Positions 3,687 to 54,603 are shown, counted from the first letter of the stretch. The stretch: 57,136 nt of DNA from a virus (IMGVR_UViG_3300037307_000387:1-57136); one strand, 5' to 3'. A program made the numbers and translations. Notes: generated from the letters alone by a model not told the origin.

Positions 3687-3693
3687 GCTCAGA

Positions 3694-14420: not shown

Positions 14421-14613
14421 GATAATGATCGACTACGGCGTGAAGTGGGCGGCTCTCGCGCCCTCGGGAGAGATGCGCCGACTGCGGCGCGAACGAGCTG
14501 CACGACGAGGGGCGGCGGCTCATCATCGAGGTCCTGACGTGCACCGCTTGCGGGCGACGGGTCTGCAAGCGGTGCCACTTCAGGCACCTCATCGACGGGC
14601 ACAAGGAGAAGGC

Positions 14614-36552: not shown

Positions 36553-37884
36553 TTACGCCTCGACCTTCTGCGCGAGGAACGCGACGGTGCGGACGAGCGC
36601 GCCGCCGACGCGCGCGGTCGGCAGGAACGCGACGTTGGGCGCGAAGCGCTCGATGAGCCGCTGCACGCGCAGGTCGCGGCGCGAGGCCACGACGTAGTAG
36701 CGCGGGTTGCCGAAGAGGACCGGGTACGCCGAGGCAGCGACCGACGGCAGGTGCTCGGTCATCCAGACCTTCTTCCCGAACAGCGTGCCGGGGATCTGGC
36801 CCGCGTACATGATCGGGTTGTTCGCGGAGTCCTTCAGCTTCAGGATCGCGCCGAAGGTCAGCGACTTCATGTACCAGACCGCGCCCTCGCGGTACTGCGC
36901 GGGCAGGGTCATCATGAGGTCGATGAGCCCGTTGTAGGTCATCAGCGAGGCGTCGCCCGTCTTCACGGACGACACGCCCGTGCCGATGTAGTCGAAGATG
37001 CCGCGCGGCTTGCCGATGCCGTCTCCGCGCAGGAAGGCGTAGTCCCAGTCGAGCGCCTGCGTCTCGGCGATCGCCTCCTGCAGGATCGACTCCAGCGGCA
37101 CCGCGGCGTCCTCGAGCAGCGACGGGTCGACGACGACCGCGTCCGGCTGCCACTCGTGGACGGGGATGCGCTCCTGCCCGAACGTCGGCTGGTTCTGGAC
37201 CGTGGGGGCGGTGCCGTCGGTGCCGACCGCGCCGGCCGGCCGCCACGTCCCCGAGTAGCCCGTCGACCACGGGTCGGTCCCGCCGACGATCGACGGGAAG
37301 ACGAGCGTGTTGGACGAGCAGGGCACGACGCGCACGCCCGACGCCAGCGCGACGCTGATGCCCGCCATGTTCTTGATGACCTCGGCCTTGAAGTCCTCGG
37401 TGACGAGCGCGCCGCCGAGCGTGCCGATGGAGCCGACGAGCGCCTGCCGCTCCTCGGGCTTGAGCGCAGTCGTCTGCGCCGAGAGCTTCTCCCGCGCCGT
37501 GATGTAGGCGGGGTGCGACGCGCCGTGGCGGAAGTAGGCGTTCTGGCACTCGCGGATCCCCTCCGCGAAGCGCTCGGCCGTCTCCTTCGACACGACCCCC
37601 TCGGCCCGCGAGCCCTCGCGATACGCCTCGCTTGGGTCGTTGGGCAGGCCGTTGATGACCTCGTTCGCGCGCGCTTCGGCGGCGATCATCTGGTCGATGC
37701 GCTGGAGCGTGCCGGCGAAGACCTCCACGTCCTTCATCGCCTTGTCGAACTGCTCCTTGAGCTCGGCCGCGTTGGCCTCGCCCTTGAGTTCGGCGTCGGT
37801 CAGCTTGACGCCGATCTCGCGCGCGTCGGCCTGCGCCTTGCCGAGTCGCTCACGCGCTTCCTTCTGCTGGACCTGAAGGGACAT
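36553..37884 (-). CDS. HK97-fold major capsid protein with N-terminal delta domain
   Basis: Coiled-coil N-terminus; GGALVTEDF, LLEDAA, AFLRGDGIGKPRGI, LKLKDSANNPI, ARVGG. Confidence 0.93.
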   Translation of the reverse strand: MSLQVQQKEARERLGKAQADAREIGVKLTDAELKGEANAAELKEQFDKAMKDVEVFAGTLQRIDQMIAAEARANEVINGLPNDPSEAYREGSRAEGVVSKETAERFAEGIRECQNAYFRHGASHPAYITAREKLSAQTTALKPEERQALVGSIGTLGGALVTEDFKAEVIKNMAGISVALASGVRVVPCSSNTLVFPSIVGGTDPWSTGYSGTWRPAGAVGTDGTAPTVQNQPTFGQERIPVHEWQPDAVVVDPSLLEDAAVPLESILQEAIAETQALDWDYAFLRGDGIGKPRGIFDYIGTGVSSVKTGDASLMTYNGLIDLMMTLPAQYREGAVWYMKSLTFGAILKLKDSANNPIMYAGQIPGTLFGKKVWMTEHLPSVAASAYPVLFGNPRYYVVASRRDLRVQRLIERFAPNVAFLPTARVGGALVRTVAFLAQKVEA

Positions 37885-37912
37885 CTCGCTTCTCCTCTCG
37901 TTCAAGCGGCCT

Positions 37913-38971
37913 TCAGGCCGCGCCTTCGTTCTTCGTGGCGCTCCCGTCCTCGGGCGCGTTCGCCGGCTCGCGCCCGTCCTCGGGCGCGCGCATCTCGTCG
38001 TCTTCGTCGTCGACCTCTTCGGCCTCGCCGATAGCGACGAGGTACTGCTTGACCGACTCGACCGTCAGCATCCGCCGCGCGTCCTTCGGGTACGAGCACG
38101 CGCCGCTGATGGCGTTGAGCAGTGCGTCGTCCGGGTTCACGCCCTCGGCGACGTAGGCCGGATAGGGCTCCAGCCGCAGCAGGGGCACGTCGATGCCGGC
38201 GGCGTGAAGCTCGGCGCGGCGCAGCCGGTCGGCGCGCAGCGCTGCGGAGCACCGCGCCTTTTTGGACTTGTTGGGCATGAGGACGATCGACTTCCGCAGC
38301 GCCTGAGCGGCGCGTCGTCCCAGCGCAGCGATGTGCCCCGGGTCGACCTTCTCGACGAGATCGACGAGCGTGCCGAGCGCCGCGCGAAGCTTCGTCAGGT
38401 TCGCCTCGGAGAAGACGCGGCCGGCGTGCGCCTCGGCGTCGGCGCGGCCGGCGAGCAGCGCAGCCTCGGCGTCCACGAGCCAGTCGTCCGGCACCTCGGT
38501 GTCGCCCTCGCGGTGCACCGTCAGCACGCGCGCGTTCGGGTCGGCCGGGAAGGTGACGAGGCTGACCTCCATCAGCTTCGCCTTCTCGACGACGCGCACC
38601 GACTTCCCGCCGTGCGTCTCCATCCTCGCCTTCTCGGCGGTGAAGCCGATCGACACACCGTCGAGCGCGCCCATCTTCAGTAGCTCGCGCGCCTCACGCC
38701 CACGCTGGACCTCGAGGGCCAGCTGCCCGTCGAGGACGAGCCCCTCGGCGCTGTCCATCGAGAGGTGCGCGACGCCGACCGGCGCGTCGTCCTTGTGCTG
38801 CCAGAGCAGCGGGTAGCGGGCACTGCGCTCCAGCGACTCGCGGAAGGCGTTCTCGGCGAAGCGGGTCGGCCCGCGCTCGCCGTTCGCGATGGAGTCGCGC
38901 GCGCTCGCGACCGCCCGGAAGGTTCCCTCCGCCCCCGTCGTGATCGCGGCGCTCAGGAACTCCAGCGACAT
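37913..38971 (-). CDS. HK97-type prohead protease with C-terminal extension
   Basis: PLLWQH...PVG, GALDGVSIGF, LMEVSLVTFPADPNARV. Confidence 0.92.
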   Translation of the reverse strand: MSLEFLSAAITTGAEGTFRAVASARDSIANGERGPTRFAENAFRESLERSARYPLLWQHKDDAPVGVAHLSMDSAEGLVLDGQLALEVQRGREARELLKMGALDGVSIGFTAEKARMETHGGKSVRVVEKAKLMEVSLVTFPADPNARVLTVHREGDTEVPDDWLVDAEAALLAGRADAEAHAGRVFSEANLTKLRAALGTLVDLVEKVDPGHIAALGRRAAQALRKSIVLMPNKSKKARCSAALRADRLRRAELHAAGIDVPLLRLEPYPAYVAEGVNPDDALLNAISGACSYPKDARRMLTVESVKQYLVAIGEAEEVDDEDDEMRAPEDGREPANAPEDGSATKNEGAA

Positions 38972-39329: not shown

Positions 39330-39646
39330 GTCGTCGGCCTCACCGTGAAGAAGAAGGGCTCGACGCTCGTCGTGAACTTCCCAGCGAGCGTCACGCGAAC
39401 CTCGGCCTGCATGATGCCGGCGACGAGATCGGCCGCGTCGAAGGTGTAGGTACAGACGCCGTTGGGCGCGTCGGTGATCGTCATCGTCTTCGTGACGAGC
39501 GTCCCGCCGTCGATCCGCCAGCGCAGCGTCACGGTGGCCCCGGAGAGATCCATCACGGCGTCGGTATCCGCGTGGCGACAGGTGACGGTGAGGACGGTGT
39601 TCGTATCCCCCGCCACGAAGGAGTAGTCCATCGCGCCGCCGAGCAT
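39326..39646 (-). CDS. BppU-N-like virion protein
   Basis: GDT..LTVT...DLSGATV...G.CTYTF...D....G...AEV. Confidence 0.65.
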   Translation of the reverse strand: MLGGAMDYSFVAGDTNTVLTVTCRHADTDAVMDLSGATVTLRWRIDGGTLVTKTMTITDAPNGVCTYTFDAADLVAGIMQAEVRVTLAGKFTTSVEPFFFTVRPTT

Positions 39647-42107: not shown

Positions 42108-42116
42108 GGACGGCTC

Positions 42117-42497
42117 CTAGATGCGCTCGACCGTGAGCAGCGAGTTGAACGTCCCGCCCGCTACCGTCACGCTCAGGCGCGCGCGGTTCGCGTCATCGGG
42201 GAAGGGGCAGAGGAGCCGCGTCTCCGGGATCTCGCCGTCCACGCCCGTCTCTTCGTTGCGGCCGATCCAGATGCCGCCGATGGCCGTGAAGCCGGCGAGG
42301 CCGCGCCACGTCTGGCCGGCATCGGACGACACGTCAAGGCGCACCGCGAGGCTCACGCCGTCGGCCCACAGCGTCGGGGTCACGGTCGTCTTGCGCGCGA
42401 GCCGGACGACGAGCGTGCCGGGCGCGTCGATCGCGTGCTCGACCTCGTGCGTTCCGGGGTTGATCGAGAGCGGCTGGGCGTCGATCAGGATCGCCAC
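42117..42497 (-). CDS. Hypothetical virion-associated protein
   Basis: GGAGG RBS; in the late operon. Confidence 0.6.
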   Translation of the reverse strand: MAILIDAQPLSINPGTHEVEHAIDAPGTLVVRLARKTTVTPTLWADGVSLAVRLDVSSDAGQTWRGLAGFTAIGGIWIGRNEETGVDGEIPETRLLCPFPDDANRARLSVTVAGGTFNSLLTVERI

Positions 42498-42498
42498 G

Positions 42499-42687
42499 TC
42501 ATGCCTCCATCGCCTTGATGAACTTCTTCACGCACTGCTTGACCTTGTCGTTCTTCGACGCGGCGAGCACGAGTCGGTCGTCGCCGTCGGATGCAGAGGT
42601 CGGGACGGACGGTAGCGGGACCGAGCCGCCGCTGGTGCACGCGGTCACGGCCGCCGCGAAGATGAGGATCACCCCTCGTCGATCCAT
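42499..42687 (-). CDS. Small putative lipoprotein
   Basis: MDRRGVILIFAAAVTA|C lipobox. Confidence 0.6.
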   Translation of the reverse strand: MDRRGVILIFAAAVTACTSGGSVPLPSVPTSASDGDDRLVLAASKNDKVKQCVKKFIKAMEA

Positions 42688-42690
42688 CGC

Positions 42691-43143
42691 TCACTCCTCC
42701 CAATAGAGGATCGCGCGCGCGTTCGTCGCGCTGTTGCCCGTCGGGTTCGTCACCCGCACGGCCCACGTCGCGTTGTAGTAGGCGACCTCGTCCTGCCCGC
42801 GCTGGAAGACCCACTCGTACCCGCTCTGGAGGTGGCAGTAGAGGGCCGCCTTCGAGGTCCACGTCGGCTCGGCCGAGTACGTCAGGCCGGCCCCCTGCAC
42901 CGTCGGCGCGCCGCCGGGCGCGCTGAGCAGCTGCTCGGTCACGCCCGCCGAGGTGCCGCCCGTCACGCTCCCGATCTCGATCAGCGCCGGCTTGTCGGTC
43001 GCCGCCACTCCCTCGAAGGAGACGATCAGGCGCAGCCACGCGACACCCTGATTCGTCGGGGCCGTGAGGCCGAGCAGCGTCTTCGTCGTGTTCGCAGCGA
43101 CGCTGATCGAGCCGCTGTCTGCCGTCGCAATCACCCTTGCCAT
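42691..43143 (-). CDS. Virion structural protein (hypothetical)
   Basis: AAGGAG RBS; MARVIATADSG...ILYWEE. Confidence 0.65.
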   Translation of the reverse strand: MARVIATADSGSISVAANTTKTLLGLTAPTNQGVAWLRLIVSFEGVAATDKPALIEIGSVTGGTSAGVTEQLLSAPGGAPTVQGAGLTYSAEPTWTSKAALYCHLQSGYEWVFQRGQDEVAYYNATWAVRVTNPTGNSATNARAILYWEE

Positions 43144-43144
43144 C

Positions 43145-43921
43145 TCAACTCCTTCTCGTTGGTACGGGGTACGAGCGGCTTCCGTAGGTTCCGCAGTATC
43201 CGCCCGCGCGGTTGCCGCCGCCGCGCATTCGGAAGCGCGGATAGGCGGACGCGGGCGGGTCGGTCCAAGTGATGATGATCTTGCCGTCGCCGCCGTTGCC
43301 GCCGCGCTTGGTCGACAAGTTACCGTTCGACGAGCCGCCGCCACCACCACCACCGCTCGCGCCGGCCACGCCGTTGTTGTTCGTCGCGACGCCGCCGTTG
43401 CCGCCGCTCGCTCCGTTGCCGCTCCCCGTCGCGCCGGTGTTCGAGGTCGCGTTCTCGCCCGCGCCCGCGTTGCCAGCGCTCGCGCCGCCACCGCCGCCGT
43501 ACCCGTTCGTGCCAACGTCGTTGTTCCCGCGCCCGCCCGCGTAGGTGGTCGTGCCGACGCAGTTCGCCGTCGTTCCGCCTGCGCCGTTCGCGCCGTTGCG
43601 GTTCCCGCCGCGCCCGGCGCTCCCGCGCACCTGATTCGCGTTGAACTCCGAGTTGTTCCCGTTCGCGCCGTTGCTGTTGTTCGATGCGCCGTACGCGCCG
43701 CCCTGCCCAACCGTCAGGTTGTAGACGGTCGATGGCACGACGGTCACGTCGCTGCGCGCGTAGCCCCCGCCGCCGCCACCGCCACCGCCGCCGCTCGTCG
43801 CCGTGTTGTTGTTCGATCCGCCCGCACCGCCCGCGCCCCAGCACTCGACCGTGATGGACGTAACGCCGGCAGGGCACGTCCACGTGTTCGCGCCCGCGAC
43901 GGTGAAGATGTTCTGGCCCAC
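43145..43921 (-). CDS. Glycine-rich domain protein
   Basis: TWTCPAGVTSITVECWGAGGAGG...GGDGKIIITW. Confidence 0.85.
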   Translation of the reverse strand: MGQNIFTVAGANTWTCPAGVTSITVECWGAGGAGGSNNNTATSGGGGGGGGGGYARSDVTVVPSTVYNLTVGQGGAYGASNNSNGANGNNSEFNANQVRGSAGRGGNRNGANGAGGTTANCVGTTTYAGGRGNNDVGTNGYGGGGGASAGNAGAGENATSNTGATGSGNGASGGNGGVATNNNGVAGASGGGGGGGSSNGNLSTKRGGNGGDGKIIITWTDPPASAYPRFRMRGGGNRAGGYCGTYGSRSYPVPTRRS

Positions 43922-44488
43922 CTAGACCTCCGCGTACCAGATGAGCGAGGGCTGGTGCTGGTACGGGGGCGGCTGCTGCGTCGCGTGGAACCTCGCGCCC
44001 GGAACGAGGTCGGCGACCGCCGCCGCCACGCCGCCGTGCTCGCCGTCGTGGCCGCAGAGCAGGCCGCCGGGGCGCAGCCGCGAGCGCCACATCAGGATGT
44101 CCTCGCGCACGGTCTCCTCGCGGTGATCGGCGTCGAGCCAGACCATGTCGAACGTCAGGTGTCCGGCGAGCGCGTAGGCCTGCTCGCTCGTCATCGCGTA
44201 GGTGACGACGTTCGACCGCCAGCCCACCTCGCGCATGTACGCGCCGTAGGCCGCGAGCGGGTCGAGCGCCGCCGTCTCGTCCTCGGGGTCGGTGGACGGC
44301 AGCCACGAGTCGACGACGTAGAGCACGCCGGGCGTCGCGCGCGCGAGCACGTCCGCGCTCTTGCCCTCCCACGCGCCGACCTCGAGGATCGAGTACCGCC
44401 GCTGCGCCTCGCTGGCGAGCCACTCCATCTGCTCCGGGTAGAGCCACCCGAAGATGCGGTCGTGGATCTCTACGGCTTGACCTTCCAC
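43922..44488 (-). CDS. Class I SAM methyltransferase (Methyltransf_24-like)
   Basis: LEVGAWEGKS, VDSW, FDMVWLDADH, LRPGGLLCGHD. Confidence 0.88.
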   Translation of the reverse strand: MEGQAVEIHDRIFGWLYPEQMEWLASEAQRRYSILEVGAWEGKSADVLARATPGVLYVVDSWLPSTDPEDETAALDPLAAYGAYMREVGWRSNVVTYAMTSEQAYALAGHLTFDMVWLDADHREETVREDILMWRSRLRPGGLLCGHDGEHGGVAAAVADLVPGARFHATQQPPPYQHQPSLIWYAEV

Positions 44489-45153
44489 CGCTCCAGCGTC
44501 TCCTTGATCTGCTCGACCTTCTCGGGGATGCCGACCGTGTAGGCGTGCCAGTAGAACTCGGCGTTCGTGAAGCCGAGGCGCTTCTCCAACGCCGTGAGCG
44601 TCTGCGTCTTGAGCCCGAAGCGCGCGATGTTCCGGCTCAGCGCGTAGTCGTCGACGAGGTGCTCGCGCGTGATGATGGTGTTCAGTTCGTCGACCGTCGG
44701 GTGGATCGCATCGACCGCCCCCTCAGGCGTCAGGTCGTCGAGCGGACGCCACAGGTCGAGGCACCACTTCGACGCGATCGTGTTCCAGTTGCACGACCCG
44801 ACGTTGCGCCCGTCGCGGAGGAAGTATTCGTCGTACCGCCAGCGGATGTTCGCGAAGTCGATGCCGTTGTGGGCCACGGTGTCGCGCGGGAGGAACGCGG
44901 TCCAGTCCGGCGTCTCGGGATGCACGAGCGCGTCGGAGTCGAGGTAGAGGTGCCACTCGCTGCCGTTACGCTTCGCGCGCTCGTAGATCTGGAGCTTCTC
45001 GTAGGTGATCGGCCAGTCGGGGAAGCGGCGCTCCGAGATGATCTCGATGTCCGCGCCGACCTTCCGCGCCCACCGATGGATGAGCGGATAGGTGAGCGCG
45101 GTGATCTCCGGCGCGTAGTCGTTCACGTTGAGCAGGTAGAGGGTCTTCGTCAA
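44470..45153 (-). CDS. GT-A glycosyltransferase-like protein
   Basis: YEKLQIYE...HLYLDSDALV DxD motif. Confidence 0.7.
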   Translation of the reverse strand: MTKTLYLLNVNDYAPEITALTYPLIHRWARKVGADIEIISERRFPDWPITYEKLQIYERAKRNGSEWHLYLDSDALVHPETPDWTAFLPRDTVAHNGIDFANIRWRYDEYFLRDGRNVGSCNWNTIASKWCLDLWRPLDDLTPEGAVDAIHPTVDELNTIITREHLVDDYALSRNIARFGLKTQTLTALEKRLGFTNAEFYWHAYTVGIPEKVEQIKETLERWKVKP

Positions 45154-45214
45154 GGGTGCCTCCAGCGCTCCTCGGTGTCGGGGGCGGGCGATCCGCCCCC
45201 ATCCCCGAGGCGCA

Positions 45215-45622
45215 CTACTCCAGCGTGCAGGTGAGCGACCCGCTCAGGATCTTGAACGTGTCGCCGCTGTTGACCGACTTCGACGCGGACAGCGTGCCCT
45301 GCCACAGGCAGTTCGACGACGCCGTTGCGGTCGAGTGATCCCAGATCGCGACGCCCGTCACCGTGCAGGTGGGCATGTTCGTCCACGTCAGGTCGGCGTT
45401 CGATGCCTTCGACGCGGGGTTGCCCTCGGTCGCGGCGGCGAAGGACGAGGTCGCGCCCTGCCGCGCGTAGGAGCCGCCCGTGATCTCGCCCGTCGTGCCG
45501 GTGTCGGTCGGGTCGGCCGAGTGCAGGGAGACGTAGAGGGAGGTCGGCTGCGAGTACGCCGTCCCCTTGAGAGCATGATCGAGGAGCTTCGCCTCGAACC
45601 ACTGCGTGAGCCCGTTTGCCAT
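45215..45622 (-). CDS. Conserved phage virion/tail-fibre-associated protein
   Basis: EAKLLDHAL...LYVSLHSADP...EITGGSYARQ...SKSVNSGDTF. Confidence 0.75.
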   Translation of the reverse strand: MANGLTQWFEAKLLDHALKGTAYSQPTSLYVSLHSADPTDTGTTGEITGGSYARQGATSSFAAATEGNPASKASNADLTWTNMPTCTVTGVAIWDHSTATASSNCLWQGTLSASKSVNSGDTFKILSGSLTCTLE

Positions 45623-46372
45623 CTAGACTGCCTCCTGTGGAACGCCGATCTGCGTCGGCGGGGTGCCCGTCATCTTCTCCACGATCATGCGACCGACCTT
45701 GTGGTGTCCGAGGCCGAGGCCGTAGTAGAGCCCCATGACGGGGAACCCCGCGGCTCGCGCCCGCTTACAGAACGAGAAGTCCTCTCCGGTGTCGACCCAG
45801 TACGGCTTCGTCGCGTGCTTCACCGGCCAGTGCATGAACCACGTGCCGGGGCCGAACCACGGCGGTTCGTCCCGCACCGCCGAGATCGCATCGAAGACGC
45901 GGCGGTGGATGAGGATGCAGGACGTGGCGACCGCGTTGACGAGGCCGATCTGCGCAGGCACGCCATCGACGAGCGGGCGCTCGGCGAGCGCGTACGAGCC
46001 AGCCGGCCCGTCCTGATCGTCCGCCGTCTGATCGAAGAAGCCGGTCGTGCGCGCGTCGTTGCCGAGGATCAGGTCGCCAGCGATGATCCCGAGCCCCGTC
46101 TCCTGCATCGCCTCGACCATCTTCGACATGGTCTCCGGGGGGCAGTGGACGTCGTGGTCGACCATCATCAGCGCGTCGCACTCGCGCTCGTACATCTTCA
46201 TGACGAGCTTGTTCCGGTTGCTCGCGATGTACGGCCCCTGCTCGAAGTTCGACGCGACGAGGTGCCCCTCGCCCGGTGGCTTCGTCATCTCGTAGTCGCG
46301 CATGAGGATGAAGCCCGCCACGAACTCGATGCGGGGTGCCCCGTGCGTCGGTGTTCCGAAGTAGACCTTCAT
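45623..46372 (-). CDS. GT2-like glycosyltransferase
   Basis: RNKLV...LMMVDHD...ATSCILIHRRVF...GEDFSFCKRAR..GF...H. Confidence 0.8.
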   Translation of the reverse strand: MKVYFGTPTHGAPRIEFVAGFILMRDYEMTKPPGEGHLVASNFEQGPYIASNRNKLVMKMYERECDALMMVDHDVHCPPETMSKMVEAMQETGLGIIAGDLILGNDARTTGFFDQTADDQDGPAGSYALAERPLVDGVPAQIGLVNAVATSCILIHRRVFDAISAVRDEPPWFGPGTWFMHWPVKHATKPYWVDTGEDFSFCKRARAAGFPVMGLYYGLGLGHHKVGRMIVEKMTGTPPTQIGVPQEAV

Positions 46373-46433
46373 GCCTTCCCCCCTCCCTCTCCCAAGGACG
46401 CGCCAGACTCTAGCAGCGGGCGCAGCGCTGTTT

Positions 46434-47195
46434 CTACGGTTCGCCTACGGGCTCCTCGTCCGGCAGCCGCACGGCGTCGCCACGCTTCTGCCACGCCTCC
46501 ATCTCCTCGACCCACGTCTCGAAGCCGATCTCGCGCGCGGGGCCGAGGTGCAGCGTCAGCAGCGCGGGATCGACGAACGTCGTGCACCGGCCGCGCAGCC
46601 GGTGGAACAGGGCGAAGTCGGGCGTCGTGAAGTGCCCCGTGTCGAAGGGGTGCTCGATCGAGCCCATGACCTCCAGCGCGCGGCGGCGGAAGAGTAGGCA
46701 GTTCATCGACGTGGCGTCGATCCGGTACGGCTTCGCCGAGGTGTCGATGCGGGTGATGAAGCGGTAGTGCTCCTTGCCGACGACCGGCTCGCCGCGCCGC
46801 GCGTTGACGATCATCGAGCGGTCGTGCCTGTCGAGTTCCTCTTGCGTGAGGACCCCCGCGTACTCCGCGATCATCGGGTGGTACGGCGAGTAGCGCATGA
46901 AGGTGATCCCGGTGGCGATGTCGACCTCGGGGTGCGCCTCGAGCAGCGCGACGAGCCGGGTGACGGCGTCCTGCGGGAGCACGCAGTCGTCCTCGGTCCA
47001 GAAGAGGGCGTCGAGGTTCGCGTTCTGGAGCGCGCGCTTGAGGATGCGCTCGCACGCTTGGATGTGGGGCGTGCGCTCGGTGCAGATGTTCGCGACCCAC
47101 GGGTGCGTCCACCCGGCGTGCATGACGGCCGCCGTCTGCGCGATCGTCACCTTCGGCGTCGCGTTGAGGTAGGGGCAGGCGAAGGCGAGCCTCAC
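46434..47195 (-). CDS. GT2-like glycosyltransferase
   Basis: LFWTEDDCVLP...IDATSMNCLLFRR...DFALF...VDP...H. Confidence 0.75.
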   Translation of the reverse strand: MRLAFACPYLNATPKVTIAQTAAVMHAGWTHPWVANICTERTPHIQACERILKRALQNANLDALFWTEDDCVLPQDAVTRLVALLEAHPEVDIATGITFMRYSPYHPMIAEYAGVLTQEELDRHDRSMIVNARRGEPVVGKEHYRFITRIDTSAKPYRIDATSMNCLLFRRRALEVMGSIEHPFDTGHFTTPDFALFHRLRGRCTTFVDPALLTLHLGPAREIGFETWVEEMEAWQKRGDAVRLPDEEPVGEP

Positions 47196-47773
47196 TTCGC
47201 CACCGCGACCGACCACCACCGCCTCGAGTCGCCACCAACCAGCCGCCGCCGCTCCTCCAGACCCGCGAGCGTCTCCGGGGTGATCTGCGAGCGCGGGATG
47301 GGGGGCAGGTTCAACTGCGCCATTAGCTCCTCCACCTTCCTGTGCAAAACGGTCTCGTTGGACGGGACGAGGATCGCGTCCTTCCCCTGCATGACGCTGC
47401 GGTATGCGGCGTTGTACTGCGACTCCCCGAACAGCGCGACGAGGCATTCTCGCAGCGCGACGATGAGGGGTGGGCCATTGCGGTAGTTCCCCTTGCAGAC
47501 CCAGTTCGGCAGGCAGGCTCGGTTGTGAAGGACGATGGTGTCGCCGGTGTTGTTGAAGGCGAGCGGGTAGAGAAGGCAGTCGATGGGGCGGTCGGCGGGG
47601 GTGAGCGTGCAGCCCTTGTCGCCGAGGTATCCGCAGCGGGAGTTCTCGAAGACGCGCGGAGGCCAGTACTGCTTAAGGCTGCAGCAGCCCGCCCCGCAGT
47701 TCCTCAGGATCCCGTCGAGGGTGCAGTTGAGGCGCTTTGACGACCACGCCGCGCTGATGCGCCACGTCTGCAT
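47192..47773 (-). CDS. YkgJ/DUF3109-like Cys-cluster protein
   Basis: NCGAGCC...CGYLGDKGCTL...RPIDCLLYPL. Confidence 0.65.
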   Translation of the reverse strand: MQTWRISAAWSSKRLNCTLDGILRNCGAGCCSLKQYWPPRVFENSRCGYLGDKGCTLTPADRPIDCLLYPLAFNNTGDTIVLHNRACLPNWVCKGNYRNGPPLIVALRECLVALFGESQYNAAYRSVMQGKDAILVPSNETVLHRKVEELMAQLNLPPIPRSQITPETLAGLEERRRLVGGDSRRWWSVAVAK

Positions 47774-47782: not shown

Positions 47783-48307
47783 CTACTCCTCCGGCTCGGC
47801 GGTTTCGTCGATGATGCCGGGGGCATCGAGGTCGCCCTCCGACGCCCCCTCCGTGAGGTCGATCACCGAGAGCCTGACGAGGAGCGCCCTCGCGTTCTCG
47901 GGGAGGAGGCCGAACAGCTCGTCGTCGCCCGCCAGCATCCTCGCCTGATCCGCGATCTCCTGCAGCCCCTCCATGCCGATGCGCTGGCCGAAGTAGTCCT
48001 TGAGGAGAAAGATCGCGGGGGTGAACTCGCGTGCGCCCGGGCGCACGGAGTCGAGCACGCGCGCGAGCGTCGCTGCCGCCTCGTCAGTCCACTTGTCGCC
48101 GCGGTCGGGCATCACCCACCGCACGCGAGCGGTGTCGATCTTGAAGTAGCGCCTCATCGGACCACTCCCCCTTCTACCAACGGAGATTTCCCCGTCAGCC
48201 CACATCTTCTCCAGCAGCTTCACGTCTTCGTCGCTTTCCGGCACATAGCCGACGAGGAGGCGCGGCTGCTCGTGGCTGAAACTGTCGACGTTGTACTCGA
48301 TCCGCAT
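47783..48307 (-). CDS. Hypothetical acidic protein directly after the MuF fusion (candidate immunity protein)
   Basis: ATG abuts the MuF stop. Confidence 0.6.
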   Translation of the reverse strand: MRIEYNVDSFSHEQPRLLVGYVPESDEDVKLLEKMWADGEISVGRRGSGPMRRYFKIDTARVRWVMPDRGDKWTDEAAATLARVLDSVRPGAREFTPAIFLLKDYFGQRIGMEGLQEIADQARMLAGDDELFGLLPENARALLVRLSVIDLTEGASEGDLDAPGIIDETAEPEE

Positions 48308-51300
48308 CTACATGCTCCACAGGTAGCTTTCGCTGATCCCCGTCGCGGCCGCGAGGTTGGCGATGAAGGCGGTCTTCGTTACCCCTTTCGGCTTGCTCGC
48401 CTTGAAGGCTGCGATCTGCGAGTACGCCGACTTGAGAACCGACGGGCTGTACTTCTTTGACTTATCGAGCCAGCTTGGATACTGGAGCCCGCCCGTTCCG
48501 GCGGGCGGCGTGGCCGCGACCCCACCGATCGTCTTCACCGGCTTCTTGTTCGCGAGCAGGTAGTCCTGCGACAAAGCCGAGGACGTCGAGCCGCGAGGGG
48601 CTGGCGTACCGGCCTTGACGAGCACGTAGTTCCCACCCTGAAAGACAATGGCGTCCTTCGACCAGACGGTCCCGTCCAACACATGGCCGCTGCCTTCGGG
48701 CGGCTTGCTGAAGATGCGCACACTCGCCGCGCTCGGCAGGTTGGGGGGCTTCGGCGTGAAAGCCGGCTTCGGGATGCCCATAAGTTCGTCGTAGTCCATG
48801 TGGTACGGCGTCTGATGCGCGATTGCCTTCTGCGTCAGCGACGGTGCCTTCGCGCCGGGCGGGGCGACCATCCCCTTGGGGACGAGGACGTAAGCGCCTG
48901 ACTTTGGCGGGGTGAAGCCATCAGGGTGGGTGTACTTCATCGTCTCACTGAGGTATGTGGAGCTGACCTTGACGTAGGTGTCTTTCTTGAAGACGAACCC
49001 CTCGACCAGCGCGTAATCCTTGATGTTCGAGATGGAGGTCGGCGGCTTGCTGGTGTAGTTGGACGTGATCCAAGGATGCGGCGACAGCTTGGGGGTGATC
49101 TTGGCGGGGGGGGTCTTGGCGTAGGGGCCGATCTTGAGGTTGTAGGCGACCATCCAAGCGGTGCTCTCGTTCATCCCGTGGGCCTTAGCGACAGCCTCCA
49201 CGTTGCCACCGTCGTTGATCCCCTTCAGGACACCGGCCATCTGGTCCTTGGTGTACTTCTTCCCGTGGTAGTTCTTGAGGTAGGAGTCGGCGTCGGCGGG
49301 GAGGTGGTAGATCTGCTTCCCCGACGGCACGTTGACCTTCGAGACGGTCACTGGTGGGACGACGCTCGACAGCGGCACCTTCACGACACCCGCCTTCGGC
49401 GCGAGCGATGGGTTCTTGTTCAGGTAGTCAGTGAGGTTGAGCGGCTTCGCGCCCCACCCGGTCGGCTTGCTGACAGGAACTACTCCGTGGGGGATGTGCA
49501 GGTTGCTGCCGAAGACGCCGGCCTCGAAGTTCTTCCCGTGCAGAACGAAGAACTCGTGCTCGTCGGCATAGCCGCTGTCGTGGATGGTCGCGCTCAGGTC
49601 GGTCGAGAAGAGGATTGACGACGGCCTCACGTCGCGCTGATAAATGCCGTGGGTGTTCCAGTTCTTGGCGACATGCTTCTGTGTGGTGTAGCCCTCGACG
49701 GCCATGTTCGCTGTGTACTTCTTATGAACCCCACGGAAGAGGACGATCCGGTCGTTGTCGGTGATACCGGCCGCGGCGAGGTCGAGCTGCGTCTCGCGGT
49801 AGCAGATTTTTACGCCGTAGACGGAAATCCTCGACGGATCGTCATCGGTGATACCGCTTTTGCTGAGCATCCCCTCAGCGCCGAGCCCCTTCTTCGCCGC
49901 TGCCCGCAGCTCCTTCGCGCCTTCAGACTGCGCGTCGCCCTTCCAGCTGTCGATGTAATCACTTACGTGCCTCTTCGCGACGTGGTAGAGGTCGCTGTTC
50001 GGATTTGTGGGGGTGCCGTTGGCGTCAGGCCTCGGGTGGAAGGCATCGTCCCAGTTGTCGAGCCCCCACTTCAGCCCGGAGGCTTTGTTTACGCCGATGA
50101 CGCTGGTCGAGGTCGCGTCGGCACACGCCATCGCGGCGGCTGGGGTGAGGGTAGCGGGCTTCGGCTCCAGCATCTTGGGGTGCTTCGCGCTGACCGGCAG
50201 ACCGGTGGTGAGGTTGTAGTACTTCCCCGGGATCGGTGGCAGCCCAGCAGACTTGTCCAGCTCGGGCAGGCGCGATTCGAGGTAGAGCCGCCGCGCCTTC
50301 AGCGTCTCCGCCAACTCATTCTTTAACTCGCCAAGCTTGCCGCCGAACTCGTTGACGATGTGGTCGATCTCTTCCGGGGAGACCTTGAGAACGTGCTCGC
50401 GGATCCCGTTCGCCACGTCCGCGTCCGTCGTGTTGCTGAAAAGGTAGGCCGCCGCGTAGTTCTTGTTGGTATCTCGGAGTGAGTCGATCTCGCCCACCGT
50501 GTTGCCGAACGCCTTCCCCTTCGGCTCCCCCATTCCCCGGTACAGGAGAGCACCGCCGGACTCGATGCGGGTCGCCATCTTCGTGCCGTCGGTGTGCGTG
50601 GCTTGGAGAATGTTGTCGCCTTTCGGGCCAGCGACATCCCAGTTCGCGAGCCAAGCGTCCGTCGCGAACCCCGCCTTGACGGCGACGTTGTCGATGTTCG
50701 CGCTGCCGCTGTGGTCGAGGAGTTGGGAGGCGAGGCGTCGCTCGCCGTTGACGAGAACGACCTTGGTGTTGGCGTGAGGGATGCCGGCGGCGCGATACAG
50801 CGCCCCGGCGATGATCTCGTTGTCGAGCGCATCGGCGTGGTCGGGCGTCTTGACGTACCACAGGACGTTGTTCTCGTCGGAGTAGATTCCTGCCTTCGAG
50901 TGCCCGCCAAGCGAGCCGGTCTTCTCCAGATTCCACTTCCCAACGATCTCGACCTCTGGAGGCTTCTTCCACGAGGTGGCGTCCCCGCCTGGCGCTCCGA
51001 TGAAGATGTGCCTCCCCCCCTTCGTGATCCACGCGCCACCGAGAAGGTTCGCGCCGGCCATCGCCTCCTCTGGCCCCGAACCGCGGTCGGGCTCCCGCCG
51101 CCACCCCGGCTTCGTCTCGACGAGGACGACGGAGCAGCGGCAGCGGGGGTGTGGCTCGGGGGGGGAGAAGAAGCGGTCGTCGAAGTACTCGTCGACCGGG
51201 ACCTCGCGGCCGTCGAGGTCCATGCAGGTACCGCAGGTCCGCTCGTCGTCGGCAGCCACCCACAGCTTGTGCCAGTGCCGCTTCCCTCCCGGCAGCTTCT

Positions 51301-51682
51301 TGTCGGCGAAGAGCTTCCCCCACGCTGCCTGTTGGCCGAGCGCGTGCGCCATGCGCGTCTCGTGCTCAGCGATCAGGTTCGCGCGCTCGCGAAGGAGCTT
51401 GCCACGGAGCTTGTCGAGATCCTTCTCCAGCGCCTTGCCCTTGAGCTTGCCCTCGGCGAGCAGGCGCTGACGAGCCCTCTCAACCGTTTCAGCCTGTTGG
51501 CCGGTGAGGCCGATGCTATTGAGGATGGAGGTGGGGGAGATGGCCTCCTGCCTGCCGTTGATTACCTTGAGGATCTCGGAGCGCACGACATCGCGCACCT
51601 GCTTCTCGATCCTCCGTGTCTCCAGCTTGACGCGGGAGTTGATGACGTCCTGCCACCTCGGCTTGATCGCGAAAGCTTCCAC
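48308..51682 (-). CDS. MuF (SPP1 gp7-like) head protein fused to kinase-like, ART-like and HTH domains
   Basis: RANLIAEHE...KLWVAADDERTCGTC..LDG...PHPRCRC (MuF); YVK..NE..DAWLANWD..NIL..RIESGG; LFRG..YTT..EHEFFVL. Confidence 0.85.
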   Translation of the reverse strand: MEAFAIKPRWQDVINSRVKLETRRIEKQVRDVVRSEILKVINGRQEAISPTSILNSIGLTGQQAETVERARQRLLAEGKLKGKALEKDLDKLRGKLLRERANLIAEHETRMAHALGQQAAWGKLFADKKLPGGKRHWHKLWVAADDERTCGTCMDLDGREVPVDEYFDDRFFSPPEPHPRCRCSVVLVETKPGWRREPDRGSGPEEAMAGANLLGGAWITKGGRHIFIGAPGGDATSWKKPPEVEIVGKWNLEKTGSLGGHSKAGIYSDENNVLWYVKTPDHADALDNEIIAGALYRAAGIPHANTKVVLVNGERRLASQLLDHSGSANIDNVAVKAGFATDAWLANWDVAGPKGDNILQATHTDGTKMATRIESGGALLYRGMGEPKGKAFGNTVGEIDSLRDTNKNYAAAYLFSNTTDADVANGIREHVLKVSPEEIDHIVNEFGGKLGELKNELAETLKARRLYLESRLPELDKSAGLPPIPGKYYNLTTGLPVSAKHPKMLEPKPATLTPAAAMACADATSTSVIGVNKASGLKWGLDNWDDAFHPRPDANGTPTNPNSDLYHVAKRHVSDYIDSWKGDAQSEGAKELRAAAKKGLGAEGMLSKSGITDDDPSRISVYGVKICYRETQLDLAAAGITDNDRIVLFRGVHKKYTANMAVEGYTTQKHVAKNWNTHGIYQRDVRPSSILFSTDLSATIHDSGYADEHEFFVLHGKNFEAGVFGSNLHIPHGVVPVSKPTGWGAKPLNLTDYLNKNPSLAPKAGVVKVPLSSVVPPVTVSKVNVPSGKQIYHLPADADSYLKNYHGKKYTKDQMAGVLKGINDGGNVEAVAKAHGMNESTAWMVAYNLKIGPYAKTPPAKITPKLSPHPWITSNYTSKPPTSISNIKDYALVEGFVFKKDTYVKVSSTYLSETMKYTHPDGFTPPKSGAYVLVPKGMVAPPGAKAPSLTQKAIAHQTPYHMDYDELMGIPKPAFTPKPPNLPSAASVRIFSKPPEGSGHVLDGTVWSKDAIVFQGGNYVLVKAGTPAPRGSTSSALSQDYLLANKKPVKTIGGVAATPPAGTGGLQYPSWLDKSKKYSPSVLKSAYSQIAAFKASKPKGVTKTAFIANLAAATGISESYLWSM

Positions 51683-51691: not shown

Positions 51692-51937
51692 TCAGGAGGA
51701 CGGGACCTCGACGACACCGCCCCCCTTCTCGATCTCGGCCATCTCCTTGGCCAGCCGCCTCCTGAACTCAGCCGCGTAGGGCGTGTCCTTTACGGCCGGC
51801 GGAAGGCCGAAGGCGACCTCGCGGGTGATGCGGGCGATGTCGTCGGTGTCGATGGTCTCGATGTCGCCGAGCTGCCCCTCCTCCCACTCCTCGAACTCGT
51901 CGTCGGGAATCTCCTCGCCTTCGACTGTTACGCTCAT
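51692..51937 (-). CDS. Small acidic protein (candidate antitoxin/immunity protein)
   Basis: ATGA overlap with the portal-zeta stop; EEIPDDEFEEWEEG. Confidence 0.7.
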   Translation of the reverse strand: MSVTVEGEEIPDDEFEEWEEGQLGDIETIDTDDIARITREVAFGLPPAVKDTPYAAEFRRRLAKEMAEIEKGGGVVEVPSS

Positions 51938-54504
51938 CCCCTCGCCTTCCTCAGAAAAGCCGCGTAGGCGGCGCGGTCGTACAGGACACGCCTCTTGCCA
52001 AGCCCCTCGGCTATCAACCTCGGCTGCTCCCCGAGCGGGACGTTGTTGTCGAAGAGACGCCACGAGTCGAGCTTCCCGCTCTTCGTCACCCTCGGGAACA
52101 CACGCGACACCGACTTGTGAGTCTCGACTATCACGGAGTCGGGCACCCATCGCCCCGTCCGCTCTGCCCGTTTCCTCGCGCCCTCCAGTGCGGACGAGAT
52201 GTCGCGGGTGGTGTAGACGGCCTCGATCTTCGCGCCGCCCGCCTTGAAGCCGTCGAGCTTTGAAACGAGCTTCTCGTACTTCCCGTCGCCGGTGCCGTCA
52301 TAGAGCATGTCGTGCTTGCCCTCGGACCCACGCTTCAGCGCGAGCGAGACGATGTGGGAGGACTCCTCGTAGGTAGCGACAGCGGCGAGTTTCTGCACCG
52401 ACTTGTCCCCAGCCAGCATCTCGCCGTACTCGGGGAGTTGCTTCCTGATCTCGTCCGCGTCGATGAGCACCATGTTCGGGGTGAGCATCTCGCCTCGAAT
52501 AGTCCCCTTCCCAGCGGCCGGCCCCCCGCCCATCATGCGGACGACCGGGGACTCGCTCGGCTTCTTGTCAGCGAAGATGTCGTCGAGGATCTTCTGGTGC
52601 AGCGCCTGCCGCTCAGGCGTCCACTCCCCATTGACCTTGTACCTGCGTTCGGTGTCGTAGTCCTCAATGCGGTGGGTTTGGGGCGTGGGGGGAAGGTTGA
52701 CGGACCCACCGCCGCCGGGTGAGATGAACTGCCCGCCCTTGGGCGTCCCGGCGGGGGCGTGGAGGGGCTTGTAGGCGGCCCCCTCGCGGTCAGGCGCAGA
52801 GTGGTGCTTGAGGTGGAGTTCGGCCGCGACCGAGGATTCGGCGCGCAGGTGCGAGTCGAGGGCACGGCCGTAGTGGGAGATGAAGCGGTCGATCGCCACG
52901 GCCCGCTCGGCCGCCCGCCAGTCCCCGCGCTTCAGCGCGAGGGACAGGGCCTCGAGATTCGAGGACTCGATGCCCTCATGCACCGCCGCGGAGAAACCAC
53001 GCTGAAGCCAGTCCGTCGCCCTCTGGATCTCCCGCTCGGACTCGTGGGGCATAGTGCCGAGTCCGAGCAGGTCGAAAGGGAGCGCCTGCCTCTCCTCCTC
53101 ATCCTCGTCCTCACGCGGCGGGCCTTCGTCGGATTTGGACTTGTTGGGCGGGAGGCCGGGCTTCCCACCACCCGCCATCGCCTGCTGCGCCGCCTCCTTC
53201 GCCTTCTCCGCGTCCTCGATGATCTTCCCCGACTCCACATCCTCTCGTCGCACCAGCGCACCCGTGGATGGCTTCCAGAAGTAGTCGGTCTTCACCTCGT
53301 CGAGGTCGGAGAGGGTTCGGGCCTCGTTGAAAGAGGCAAGGCCGTTCAGGAACAGCTTCGACGCCCGCTCGACGCGCGCGTTGAGGTCTTCCTGAAGCTC
53401 GGGGATGGACTCGAGATCGAAGACTAGCTCGAGGTTCTCGTCGTACTCCGAGACAATGTGGCGCGTGAGGCCGTCGCTGATCCGCCGGTAGATCGGCCCT
53501 AGCGTCTCGGTCCAGAAGGATCGCCGCGCCGACTCGGCGTTGGAGTAGGTGTTGAACTGGAGGCCGATGCGGGCTTGGATGATTGAGGGCGGCACGCCGA
53601 ACGTCGCGCACAGCCGGCTTTCGCTCATCCCCCACACTGCGTCGAGGCGAAGCTGGGCAGGCTCAGTGGCAATCGCCTGATACTCCACGTCCCCACCGAG
53701 GACGCCGACGTTGTGCCAGCGCGTCTTGCGCTGCGGGGCGATCTCGCCCGTGCCGTACTGCTCTGCCCACTCCTGCTGCACGCGCAGCCGATCCTCGCGC
53801 CGCACCGCCGGGGTCTTGAACTTGAGCAGCCCCATCGGCATCGCGCCGTTGGCGAAGAAGTCGCGGAGATAGAGGGCGGCGGCGGTGTCGATGTCGCCGA
53901 ACACCGCCGCGACGGAGAGGGGCGACAGGCCGTGGAAGTCGTTGAGCGGGTCGGGGAGGCGAAGCAGCGCGAGGTCTTTCGTTTCGATCCGCTGCGGCGC
54001 GTAGGCCTCCGAGTCGACTTTGTACTCGTAGTAGAGGACGTTGCCCTGCCGGTCGGGCACGGGCTGGATGCGGTCGGGGCGGGCTGGCTTGAGCTGGATG
54101 ATCTCGCCGCTTGCGTTGCGGCCTTTGTGGAGGTAGCCCTCGCCGGCCACCTGCTGGTGGATCAGCAGCGTCTCGATCAACTCGTACCACGACAGCCCGG
54201 GCGCGGGGCGCGCGAGCAGGTCGAGCAGCGGGTGCCCTTCTACCTCCCCCTGAGTCTTACGGTCGCGCAGGTACACGCGCGGCGCTGCGGCCGACGAGGC
54301 GATCTCGTTGACGCAGCAGTAGACGATGACGTTGTGGCGGTAGCCCTCGTCCATGAGGGTGCGCGGGTCCCAGTCGTTTACTGGGACGGGCCGCCCAGCC
54401 ACGAACCGTGTCACCACGTCGAGTTCGTTGGCGGGGGCGGGCTTGGGCTGTGCGGCAGGCTTGCGGAAGCGGTCGATGGCTCGGGTGAGCCAAGAGTTGG
54501 CCAC
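51934..54504 (-). CDS. HK97-type portal protein fused to a C-terminal zeta-toxin-like P-loop kinase
   Basis: VYCCVNEIASSAA, HPLLDLLARP, HGLSPL, FFANGAMP, FGVPP, YSNAE (portal); GGGPAAGKGT, IDADEIRK, YDGT, RAERTGRWVP (zeta-like). Confidence 0.9.
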   Translation of the reverse strand: MANSWLTRAIDRFRKPAAQPKPAPANELDVVTRFVAGRPVPVNDWDPRTLMDEGYRHNVIVYCCVNEIASSAAAPRVYLRDRKTQGEVEGHPLLDLLARPAPGLSWYELIETLLIHQQVAGEGYLHKGRNASGEIIQLKPARPDRIQPVPDRQGNVLYYEYKVDSEAYAPQRIETKDLALLRLPDPLNDFHGLSPLSVAAVFGDIDTAAALYLRDFFANGAMPMGLLKFKTPAVRREDRLRVQQEWAEQYGTGEIAPQRKTRWHNVGVLGGDVEYQAIATEPAQLRLDAVWGMSESRLCATFGVPPSIIQARIGLQFNTYSNAESARRSFWTETLGPIYRRISDGLTRHIVSEYDENLELVFDLESIPELQEDLNARVERASKLFLNGLASFNEARTLSDLDEVKTDYFWKPSTGALVRREDVESGKIIEDAEKAKEAAQQAMAGGGKPGLPPNKSKSDEGPPREDEDEEERQALPFDLLGLGTMPHESEREIQRATDWLQRGFSAAVHEGIESSNLEALSLALKRGDWRAAERAVAIDRFISHYGRALDSHLRAESSVAAELHLKHHSAPDREGAAYKPLHAPAGTPKGGQFISPGGGGSVNLPPTPQTHRIEDYDTERRYKVNGEWTPERQALHQKILDDIFADKKPSESPVVRMMGGGPAAGKGTIRGEMLTPNMVLIDADEIRKQLPEYGEMLAGDKSVQKLAAVATYEESSHIVSLALKRGSEGKHDMLYDGTGDGKYEKLVSKLDGFKAGGAKIEAVYTTRDISSALEGARKRAERTGRWVPDSVIVETHKSVSRVFPRVTKSGKLDSWRLFDNNVPLGEQPRLIAEGLGKRRVLYDRAAYAAFLRKARG

Positions 54505-54603
54505 GGGTCCTCCCGCGCTCGCTCGGCGCTCGACGTGCGGGAGCATCCTTGGCGGTGGCCCGCCGCTCTCGCCTCGCGCTGCCGGCGGTCGTCAGCGAGG
54601 GAG

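Follow-up and report, generated by a model that had tools for sequence, protein, structure and literature searches.

A polyvalent MuF protein with predicted kinase, ADP-ribosyltransferase and helix-turn-helix-like cargo on an uncultured viral contig

Introduction

Why would a gene in a phage head module encode enzyme-like domains behind a head-morphogenesis domain? This question is raised by the gene at positions 48308..51682 (minus strand) of the uncultured viral contig IMGVR_UViG_3300037307_000387, whose whole analysed stretch of 57,136 nucleotides we call the window. An initial annotation of the window described the gene product as a polyvalent MuF protein with a kinase-like domain, an ADP-ribosyltransferase (ART)-like domain and two helix-turn-helix (HTH)-like pieces, and proposed that it is an injected multi-effector protein. 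Working from the sequence and from predicted structural models, we find support for this proposal and give a probability of roughly 0.6 to the reading that the protein, P0001, is a polyvalent MuF virion protein that would deliver a kinase, an ART and DNA-binding-like units together with the genome.

The first phage molecules that a host cell encounters are the proteins injected along with the DNA. To our knowledge only few of them have been studied, for example the P1 Dar proteins and T4 Alt, the textbook injected phage ART.

Several earlier studies bear on P0001. MuF-fused ARTs and other effectors have been proposed to be packaged in heads and injected (PMC5512222, PMC9503650 and PMC5576092, in their available text); T4 Alt is mentioned as a head-packaged phage ART in the available text of PMC9503650, and the polyvalent proteins of phages and conjugative elements are treated in that of Iyer, Burroughs, Anand, de Souza and Aravind 2017 (PMC5512222).

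Results

Domain architecture and the MuF domain

The open reading frame (ORF) proposed for this locus was recovered from the sequence with a GTG start and 1124 amino acids (aa), and all motifs quoted in the initial annotation were located in its translation. Its parts, with the basis on which each was delimited, are as follows.

48308..51682, minus strand: whole gene, polyvalent MuF protein P0001, 1124 aa, GTG start (ORF list and translation)
51083..51682, minus strand: MuF (phage head morphogenesis) domain, aa 1-200, with the Pfam match at aa 72-185 (PF04233)
50996..51031, minus strand: WITKGGRHIFIG motif, aa 218-229, followed by a Gly-rich linker (clade conservation)
50240..50977, minus strand: atypical protein-kinase-like module, aa ~236-481 (AlphaFold2 model, fold matches, residue counts)
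49976..50239, minus strand: Pro-rich linker and HPRPD..G.PTNP.S segment, the latter at aa 549-563 (clade conservation, ART model)
49478..49975, minus strand: predicted ART domain, aa ~570-735, with R650, T666/T667 and E708-x-E710 (profile, motifs, AlphaFold2 model)
49133..49297, minus strand: HTH-like unit 1, aa ~796-850, containing ..NYHGKKYTKDQM..VEAVAKAHGMNESTAW.. (homology, weak Pfam matches)
48812..49075, minus strand: beta-rich unit 1, aa ~870-957, GFVFKKDTYVKV ... GAYVLVPKG (conserved in P0004)
48554..48745, minus strand: beta-rich unit 2, aa ~980-1043, with GTVWSKDAIVF and GNYVLVKAG (conserved in P0004 and P0006)
48311..48517, minus strand: HTH-like unit 2, aa ~1056-1124, containing ..SKKYSPSVL..IANLAAATGISESYLW (homology to the C-terminal unit of P0004)

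The N-terminal MuF assignment was secure: Phage_Mu_F (PF04233) matched with an expectation value (E) of 1.7e-10 and 42.1 bits, above its gathering score of 29.6, and PHROG head-morphogenesis families matched aa 26-192 (phrog_3517, E 5.1e-19). An NCBIfam scan of P0001 returned only the MuF model TIGR01641, under its cut-off. The gene adjoins the portal gene inside a head module: on the minus strand the portal gene (51934..54546) lies upstream, followed by the MuF gene and by a gene for a 174-aa protein, P0136 (47783..48307), with genes for the head maturation protease (37913..38971) and the major head protein (36553..37905) further on, and the same strand also encodes a head-tail connector protein and a tape measure protein. 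The portal/MuF gene order is the same in a related contig, L001, whose MuF protein is ~46% identical to that of the window. Megablast of positions 36000-57136 against 50,697 phage records gave no match.

Three full-length metagenomic relatives (P0004, P0005 and P0006) are 45-52% identical to P0001, have the N-terminus in common with it and share its architecture as far as the ART; another protein, P0003, is an identical copy of P0001. We use "clade" for the four distinct full-length proteins P0001, P0004, P0005 and P0006. The WITKGGRHIFIG motif that the initial annotation had placed after the MuF domain is present, and is kept in all four clade proteins as W[IV]T..G+..[IVL]; a search with this regular expression did not find it in the remaining proteins of a 137-protein set.

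A module with a predicted kinase fold

The region annotated as HipA/PI3-4-kinase-like (50950-50280, or aa 245-468) falls inside the module that we delimited at aa ~236-481. An AlphaFold2 model of this module, built from a 17-row alignment (A3) that holds whole relatives rather than trimmed modules and whose catalytic columns were checked by eye, had a mean predicted local distance difference test (pLDDT) score of 87.5 and a predicted template-modelling (pTM) score of 0.86. Foldseek comparison with the PDB gave 236 matches at E ≤ 1e-3, the best being Helicobacter pylori CtkA (E 1.7e-7), and nearly all of the matches listed were protein kinases. Alignment with VIA-align gave Z 16.7 for CtkA (root-mean-square deviation 3.7, 219 residues aligned), 14.6 for CotH, 11.7 for HipA, 10.9 for LepB, 10.2 for actin-fragmin kinase and ~9 for PI3K/Vps34. 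These matches predict a bilobal kinase fold. The helical C-lobe is kept in the model (helices at fragment residues 169-249). For this part of the protein, the structural comparison that the initial annotation had proposed as its own check therefore left the kinase call standing.

Five positions define the putative active site: K278, E289, D349, N357 and E374, the last being Asp elsewhere in the family. They lie in the quoted motifs YVK (276-278), NE (288-289), DAWLANWD (342-349), NIL (357-359) and RIESGG (372-377). Across 105 unique modules, K278, E289 and D349 are each conserved in 104 and N357 in all 105; from their positions in the secondary structure of the model, we assign them as the ATP-binding Lys, the helix-C Glu, the catalytic Asp and a metal-binding Asn. 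Position 374, which would correspond to the metal-binding Asp of the DFG motif, is D in 100 modules, E in 4 and N in 1, and the four with E are the clade members. The remark that Glu stands here where Asp is usual was thus accurate, and the canonical metal-binding Asp is missing from P0001.

Of the solved structures, CtkA, CotH (a Bacillus spore coat kinase) and HipA (a persistence toxin kinase) align with the module over 197-219 residues and share its order of elements, namely strand-3 Lys, helix-C Glu, D...N loop and D/E-x-G, but sequence identity is only 12-15% and the module is not a member of these families by sequence. HipA_2 matched the window fragment at E 0.044 (13.5 bits against a cut-off of 27) and HipA_C at E 0.22; across the A3 members, HipA_C gave sub-threshold matches in 4 of 17 (best E 0.0023) and HipA_2 in 2 of 17, and no PI3_PI4_kinase match was listed in the Pfam scan of the module. 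Profiles thus place it neither in the HipA families (PF07804 / PF20613) nor in the PI3/PI4-kinases, and by its sequence the module falls outside every Pfam family and has no Pfam model of its own. "HipA/PI3-4-kinase-like" was nevertheless a fair label, given the sub-threshold HipA_C and HipA_2 matches, although the nearest solved folds are CtkA and CotH. Among PDB chains, P0001 and the profiles A2, A3 and A5 matched no kinase, ART or HTH significantly by sequence; hits of profile A2 to polyubiquitin and proteasome were discarded as noise (per-domain E ~600), and a Pfam LPD38 match (E 0.036 / 0.0056) was taken as chance, with 1 of 17 members matched.

The module is widespread. BLASTP matched it in 16 other proteins (E 1e-28 to 1e-81). 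The modules of clade members are 47-54% identical to one another, and BLASTP and tblastn found the module at 29-42% identity in 13 further proteins of 861-1935 aa, where its partners are MuF, ARTs of the PF03496 or PF18760 families, 2H phosphoesterase and pentapeptide repeats. It occurs in 20 records of cultured phages of Pseudomonas, Escherichia, Enterobacter, Yersinia, Morganella, Aeromonas and Gordonia, where the proteins that hold it are often annotated 'ADP-ribosyltransferase' (Dolphis and Jeremy of Pseudomonas putida are examples of cultured phages with the kinase-ART combination), and at no fewer than 575 confirmed IMG/VR loci (at least that number). Judged by these sequence matches, the kinase stretch is a mobile module. 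The best BFVD matches of the kinase model were large phage proteins, one named portal and two named ADP-ribosyltransferase.

Two observations extend this distribution. The BFVD entry A0A6J5S481 (1201 aa, 'Phage portal protein, HK97') has the same kinase fold (E 4.2e-15), so that the module appears to ride on portals too and not on MuF proteins alone. Six loci (L009, L010, L016, L019, L021 and L028) hold two kinase modules each in consecutive frames, for example L009 at 2-2614 and 3128-4678, indicating that the module can be duplicated or split over neighbouring genes.

A divergent ART domain with an invariant R / S-T / E motif

The ART-like region of the initial annotation (49750-49540, aa 645-715) lies inside the domain that we delimited, but the domain is larger, at ~165 residues. 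Its motifs are LFRG (648-651), GYTT (664-667) and DEHEFFVL (707-714). A profile of the four clade members (A2), searched against 1.84 billion sequences, retrieved 119 representatives at E ≤ 1e-3 17 of them at E ≤ 1e-10. In a Pfam scan of the first 61 of 116 new hits, 16 had a MuF domain and 10 matched DRAT (PF07357) at E ≤ 1e-3, with 5 of these reaching its cut-off of 25 bits. On P0001 itself DRAT gave no match at E ≤ 1, and by sequence the domain is best described as a distant relative of DRAT and not a member. Apart from these weak DRAT matches in relatives, Pfam has no model that covers the family. Most proteins of this ART family carry the domain at the C-terminus of a MuF protein of 400-600 aa.

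In a 50-row alignment, Q632, R650, G651 and E710 are invariant, position 666 is S or T in every row, and position 708 is Q in 29 rows and E in 21, the window protein having E708-H-E710. The residues picked out in the initial annotation (R, S/T and ExE) are therefore the invariant ones of the family, and they make up the catalytic motif of the R-S-E clade (Arg, Ser/Thr, [QE]xE). P0001 shares this motif with DraT (PF07357), ART2.2, C2-I/iota/VIP2, ExoS and C3, but the spacing from R to S/T is only ~16 residues and no Pfam ART model matched.

An AlphaFold2 model of the domain (pLDDT 84.5, pTM 0.79) places R650 in the strand at model residues 112-118, T666/T667 at the junction of the strand at 128-132 with a helix, and ExE directly before the last strand (176-180). 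Foldseek gave no match at E ≤ 1e-3, the best being ExoS at 6.2e-3, and the matches listed were all ARTs (ExoS, ExoT, C2-I, C3, iota-like, VIP2, ART2.2 and HopU1). An unbiased VIA scan against 48,161 chains gave 67 matches at Z ≥ 2, and the 13 best (Z 5.8-4.6) were all ADP-ribosylating enzymes, six of them by title; C2-I, ExoS, CPILE-a, VIP2, Certhrax and C3stau2 are likewise such enzymes. The fold match is thus weak but specific, the best matches of the model being almost solely ARTs, and the ART part of the initial annotation also came through the structural comparison. We predict an ART because the fold matches are specific and the R / S-T / E motif is invariant.

The linker before the domain contains a segment, HPRPD..G.PTNP.S (49994-50038), in which H549, P550, R551, P552, D553, G556, P558, T559, N560, P561 and S563 are invariant in all four clade proteins. 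It is packed against the ART domain in the model with high confidence (mean pLDDT of 79, 88 and 93 for the successive 10-residue blocks of aa 535-564), and might act as a lid or in docking, or serve as a processing site.

A Lys/Pro-rich tail with repeated HTH-like units

The tail (aa ~736-1124) is rich in Lys (11.1%) and Pro (10.8%), as the initial annotation had it. The two HTH-like pieces proposed there, VEAVAKAHGMNESTAW at aa 828-843 and IANLAAATGISESYLW at aa 1107-1122, belong to real homologous repeats whose weak matches are mostly to HTH families, but none reaches a Pfam cut-off. Unit 1 matches the first and the C-terminal units of P0004, P0005 and P0006, and unit 2 is homologous to the C-terminal unit of P0004 (E 1.6e-6). 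Sub-threshold Pfam matches were HTH_Tnp_1 (E 0.0088, 16.7 bits against 24.1) and HTH_23 (E 0.21) for unit 1, and HTH_23 (E 0.0016) for the P0006 equivalent of unit 2; scanned singly, four HTH-like units from the window and L001 gave weak matches that were mostly HTH (HTH_23 at 2.1e-4 and HTH_SB at 2.7e-4, both for units of relatives, HTH_Tnp_1 at 8.8e-3, HTH_7 and Sigma70_r4_2). Two ART relatives, P0022 and P0026, have HTH_SB / HTH_23 matches directly after the ART (HTH_SB in P0022 at 27.7 bits against a cut-off of 43).

Between the HTH-like units lie the two beta-rich units, the first of which is conserved in P0004 with E 8.6e-11. Smith-Waterman alignment of the two gave a local score of 59, compared with 37 ± 6.8 for shuffled sequences (6 of 300 shuffles reached 59), weakly suggesting that they are a repeat; BLASTP self-comparison of the tail gave no match, and an ESM Atlas search with aa 745-1124 gave no usable match.

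Kinase-ART pairing across proteins

Hidden Markov models of both modules found the kinase followed ~100 residues later by the ART family of P0001 in 10 proteins (P0001, P0004-6, P0020, P0022-25 and P0089). Among the best 80 viral loci, in which 86 segments hold the kinase module, an ART of the P0001 type comes after the kinase solely in the contig of the close relative itself, and in L079 it lies upstream of the module. A Pfam scan covered 66 of the 86 tails and left aside 20: the relative itself, L079, apparent duplicates, and tails that were truncated at the end of the locus or shorter than ~240 aa. ARTs followed the kinase in 19 of the 66 (PF03496 in 18, PF18760 in 1); other families were NUDIX in 2 (one being the PF18760 tail), helicase/RNase T in 2 and DUF3626 in 1, with one sub-threshold SH3-like match, and 42 tails had no Pfam family. 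Other ART families also follow the module in 7 of the 17 A3 members. Judging from these sequences, the kinase often has an ART after it, though this cannot be shown for every case, and ART families appear interchangeable. In some giant proteins, what comes directly after the kinase is not an ART but an RNase T-like exonuclease plus a UvrD-type helicase, or NUDIX domains (L052, L066, L070 / L051, L058).

Because the pairing survives a swap among the PF03496, PF18760 and DraT-like ART families, the two enzymes might be functionally coupled. In its strongest form, coupling would make kinase and ART an obligate two-enzyme cassette that acts jointly on one DNA-associated target at genome entry, a proposal that we regard as speculative and rather doubtful. 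The HTH-bearing tail would then tether the pair to the incoming DNA, and phosphorylation could prime, lock or protect an ADP-ribose mark whose bearer might be a host protein of defence or transcription, or the DNA itself. If true, such coupling would be a modification chemistry not described for phages.

Neighbouring genes as cargo carriers and candidate partners

The genes on either side of the MuF gene are as follows.

51934..54546, minus strand: portal protein with a C-terminal Zeta-toxin domain, aa 657-834, nucleotides 52045-52578 (PF04860, PF06414)
47783..48307, minus strand: P0136, 174 aa with an acidic C-terminus, starting at the base adjoining the MuF stop codon (conserved in L001)

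The portal-Zeta fusion reported earlier is clear, with matches to Phage_portal (PF04860, E 1.5e-56) and Zeta_toxin (PF06414, E 2.1e-20, 73.4 bits against a cut-off of 22.3) and an intact P-loop, GGGPAAGKGT, beginning at aa 673. The portal of L001 (3273-5783, plus strand) is 71% identical to that of the window over aa 7-588; past ~aa 588 it has an ATLF domain match (PF07737, E 2e-6) in place of the Zeta toxin, a family that we take to be anthrax-lethal-factor-like. Compared at the sequence level, the exchange of Zeta for ATLF on homologous portals reads as a clean cargo swap. The portal-Zeta linker also carries PKGGQFISPGGGG, which loosely resembles the W[IV]T..G+..[IVL] motif of the MuF protein; the two may represent a shared linker or processing signal.

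P0136 and the L001 ORF that comes right behind the MuF gene there are 39% identical (E 1e-33). P0136 matched no Pfam or PHROG family, a word-indexed homologue search returned P0136 itself only, and a scan of viral contigs with profile A6 returned only the contig of the known relative. P0136 is a candidate partner, chaperone or immunity protein. Complex predictions for the kinase module, the ART domain and, as partner, P0136 scored 0.33, 0.00 and 0.00 in runs without controls, and point neither towards nor away from binding. The next gene encodes P0137 (193 aa, Cys-rich, 47192-47773, minus strand), which matches DUF3109 weakly (E 0.006); conservation of P0137 together with the cassette was rejected, for P0137 has no similarity to the corresponding L001 neighbour, a glycosyltransferase-like gene.

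Codon composition of the cassette

The initial annotation had remarked on higher third-position A/T in this gene, which is modestly true but not specific to the cargo domains. G+C content at third codon positions (GC3) is 0.866 for the whole MuF gene, 0.825 for its ART part and 0.890 for its MuF domain, compared with 0.971, 0.935 and 0.925 for the major capsid, protease and tape measure genes and 0.877 for the portal gene. Overall G+C at 48-51 kb is lower, at 0.61-0.65. Because the portal and the MuF domain have GC3 similar to that of the gene, this drop is mainly one of amino-acid composition rather than a cargo-specific codon signal, and low GC3 as a mark of recently acquired cargo was ruled out.

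Discussion

How P0001 could act

In the reading that we favour, the N-terminal MuF domain would recruit P0001 into the procapsid beside the portal, and the remainder of the chain would be cargo, leaving the head together with the DNA when a cell is infected. The first cargo would be an atypical kinase-like enzyme of the CtkA/CotH/HipA neighbourhood, with K, E, D and N intact and the second metal-binding Asp replaced by Glu. The second would be a mono-ADP-ribosyltransferase of the R-S/T-ExE type, distantly DraT-like, that most likely uses NAD+ to modify arginine in host proteins; ExE is the signature of arginine-specific ARTs, and we propose this target because of that rule. The third would be the Lys/Pro-rich tail with its two simple tri-helical HTH-like units, probably DNA-binding, which could hold the enzymes to the genome while it is packaged or entering, or direct them to host proteins bound to DNA. 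A third enzyme, a Zeta-type kinase, would be carried by the adjacent portal.

Several points weigh against this reading. Packaging and injection are argued by analogy with MuF precedent, and P0001 has no significant Pfam match for a kinase or an ART. With Glu in place of Asp at the DxG metal site, the kinase could have reduced activity or none. For the ART, the fold match is weak (best Z 5.8, where the tool's caution line is Z 8; Foldseek E 6e-3), and the split between Q (29) and E (21) at position 708 means that the target chemistry may vary. No HTH match reaches a Pfam cut-off, the best PDB profile match of the HTH units being the HipB HTH at E 0.049. Finally, about one third of the chain (linkers and beta-rich units) has no role in the model. 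On the supporting side, association with the particle has a precedent: 'phage particle associated protein' is the annotation of a 6441-base coding sequence (~2146 aa) of Yersinia phage fHe-Yen8-01 in which this kinase module also occurs; we found no paper on this phage, and the association is known from the GenBank note.

Relation to known systems

P0001 is most likely a rare variant of the known class of polyvalent MuF effectors. Like the polyvalent proteins of PMC5512222, as these are described in its available text, it is a large chain, virion-associated in our reading, with unrelated enzymes behind a head domain such as MuF; the components listed there include ARTs, kinases, Zeta-type kinases and an occasional HTH, and injection with the DNA is proposed. 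The kinase family described there lacks a whole C-terminal subdomain, has a His...Asp phosphotransfer pair and occurs mainly in prophages of the Verrucomicrobia-Chlamydia group and Bacteroidetes, whereas the P0001 kinase has a helical C-lobe and the pattern NWD...DN...[DE]xGG. Compared by description, the two look different, and the supplement of that paper may list the P0001 type. Like the MuF polymorphic toxins of Jamet et al. 2017 (PMC5576092, in its available text), P0001 has an N-terminal MuF domain followed by toxin-like domains of kinds that include ARTs, as in the Enterococcus faecalis EFV MuF-ART, and a small ORF lies directly downstream. Unlike them, it has two predicted enzymes and DNA-binding-like units and is about twice as long, and the word 'kinase' is absent from the main text of that paper. 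In the literature that we consulted on MuF, kinases, phages and CtkA, we found no description of the kinase module, which the supplementary lists of PMC5512222 or PMC5576092 may hold.

Alternative explanations

P0001 could instead be a MuF polymorphic toxin for inter-bacterial competition, whose ART and/or kinase would inhibit the growth of non-lysogens to which virions deliver it, with P0136 as the immunity protein that would protect producing or lysogenic cells. The position of P0136, abutting the MuF stop codon and 39% identical to its counterpart in the same position of L001, is what such a system would look like, as is the usual place of this ART family at the C-terminus of shorter MuF proteins. 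P0136, however, belongs to no known family and at 174 aa exceeds the immunity proteins of fewer than 150 aa described in the available text of PMC5576092; a scan of 23 ORFs elsewhere in the window found no integrase, and an architecture of several enzymes plus HTH-like units fits polyvalent take-over proteins better than a single-toxin type. We regard this explanation as unlikely, while giving it real weight.

The Glu at position 374 raises the question of whether the kinase-like module of the clade is a pseudokinase, serving as a scaffold or as a nucleotide-binding regulator of an ART that alone is catalytic. Restriction of E to the window clade agrees with this, and the persistence of kinase-ART linkage across ART families is compatible with regulatory coupling. 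Glu, however, is a conservative and still metal-binding substitution, and K278, E289, D349 and N357 are invariant in the four clade members even though their modules are only 47-54% identical, which points to continued selection on the active site. Because these other catalytic residues stay invariant, the kinase of the clade is more likely active than dead, activity being predicted from this conservation, and we find a pseudokinase rather improbable.

DarT, pierisin and Scabin are ARTs that act on nucleic acid, and the ART of P0001 might likewise modify nucleic acid under HTH guidance, marking host or phage DNA at entry. HTH-like units do lie directly after the ART in the window clade, in P0022 and in P0026, and Scabin is among the fold matches (Z 3.6), but the best fold matches modify proteins (ART2.2, C2-I, ExoS, C3 and VIP2), the clade has the arginine-specific ExE signature, and relatives match DRAT, a protein-arginine ART. 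We therefore hold a nucleic-acid target to be quite improbable compared with the protein arginine proposed above.

Least probable of all is that the extra domains are never delivered, being of use instead only inside the producing cell or during head assembly (where the Lys-rich tail might, for example, condense DNA) or being cut off by the prohead protease before packaging, since the presence of a prohead protease gene (phrog_80, E 7.7e-38), the processing of P1 DdrB before packaging (PMC5512222, in its available text) and a Lys/Pro-rich tail that could bind DNA non-specifically are outweighed by intact catalytic residues in two enzymes and by the exchange of Zeta for an ATLF-like domain on the portal, both typical of conflict effectors rather than of assembly factors.

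Significance

The locus shows the kinase-ART pairing kept with a different ART family, supplies a natural Asp-to-Glu variant of the kinase active site, and presents adjoining portal and MuF genes as exchangeable carriers of three predicted enzymes. Activities and targets, if found, would reveal how phages disarm or reprogram their hosts in the first seconds of infection, and the proteins could be a source of new protein-modifying enzymes.

Other features of the window

Between the MuF cassette and the protease gene, at ~39300-47450 on the minus strand, lie ~9 kb of unusual head-module genes that encode two glycosyltransferase-like proteins, a Methyltransf_24 protein, a Gp80 fibre-like protein (PF23140, E 7.4e-33), a glycine-rich-domain protein (PF21722) and, at 39646-41394, a repeat protein that is very G+C-rich (0.775 at 40-41 kb). 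These genes hint at capsid decoration or glycosylation. In the region 1-28000, the window encodes a ParB-like protein (3132-3743), an exonuclease (12297-13517), a RecT-like annealing protein (14425-15513) and a NinG/HNH protein (20365-21312).

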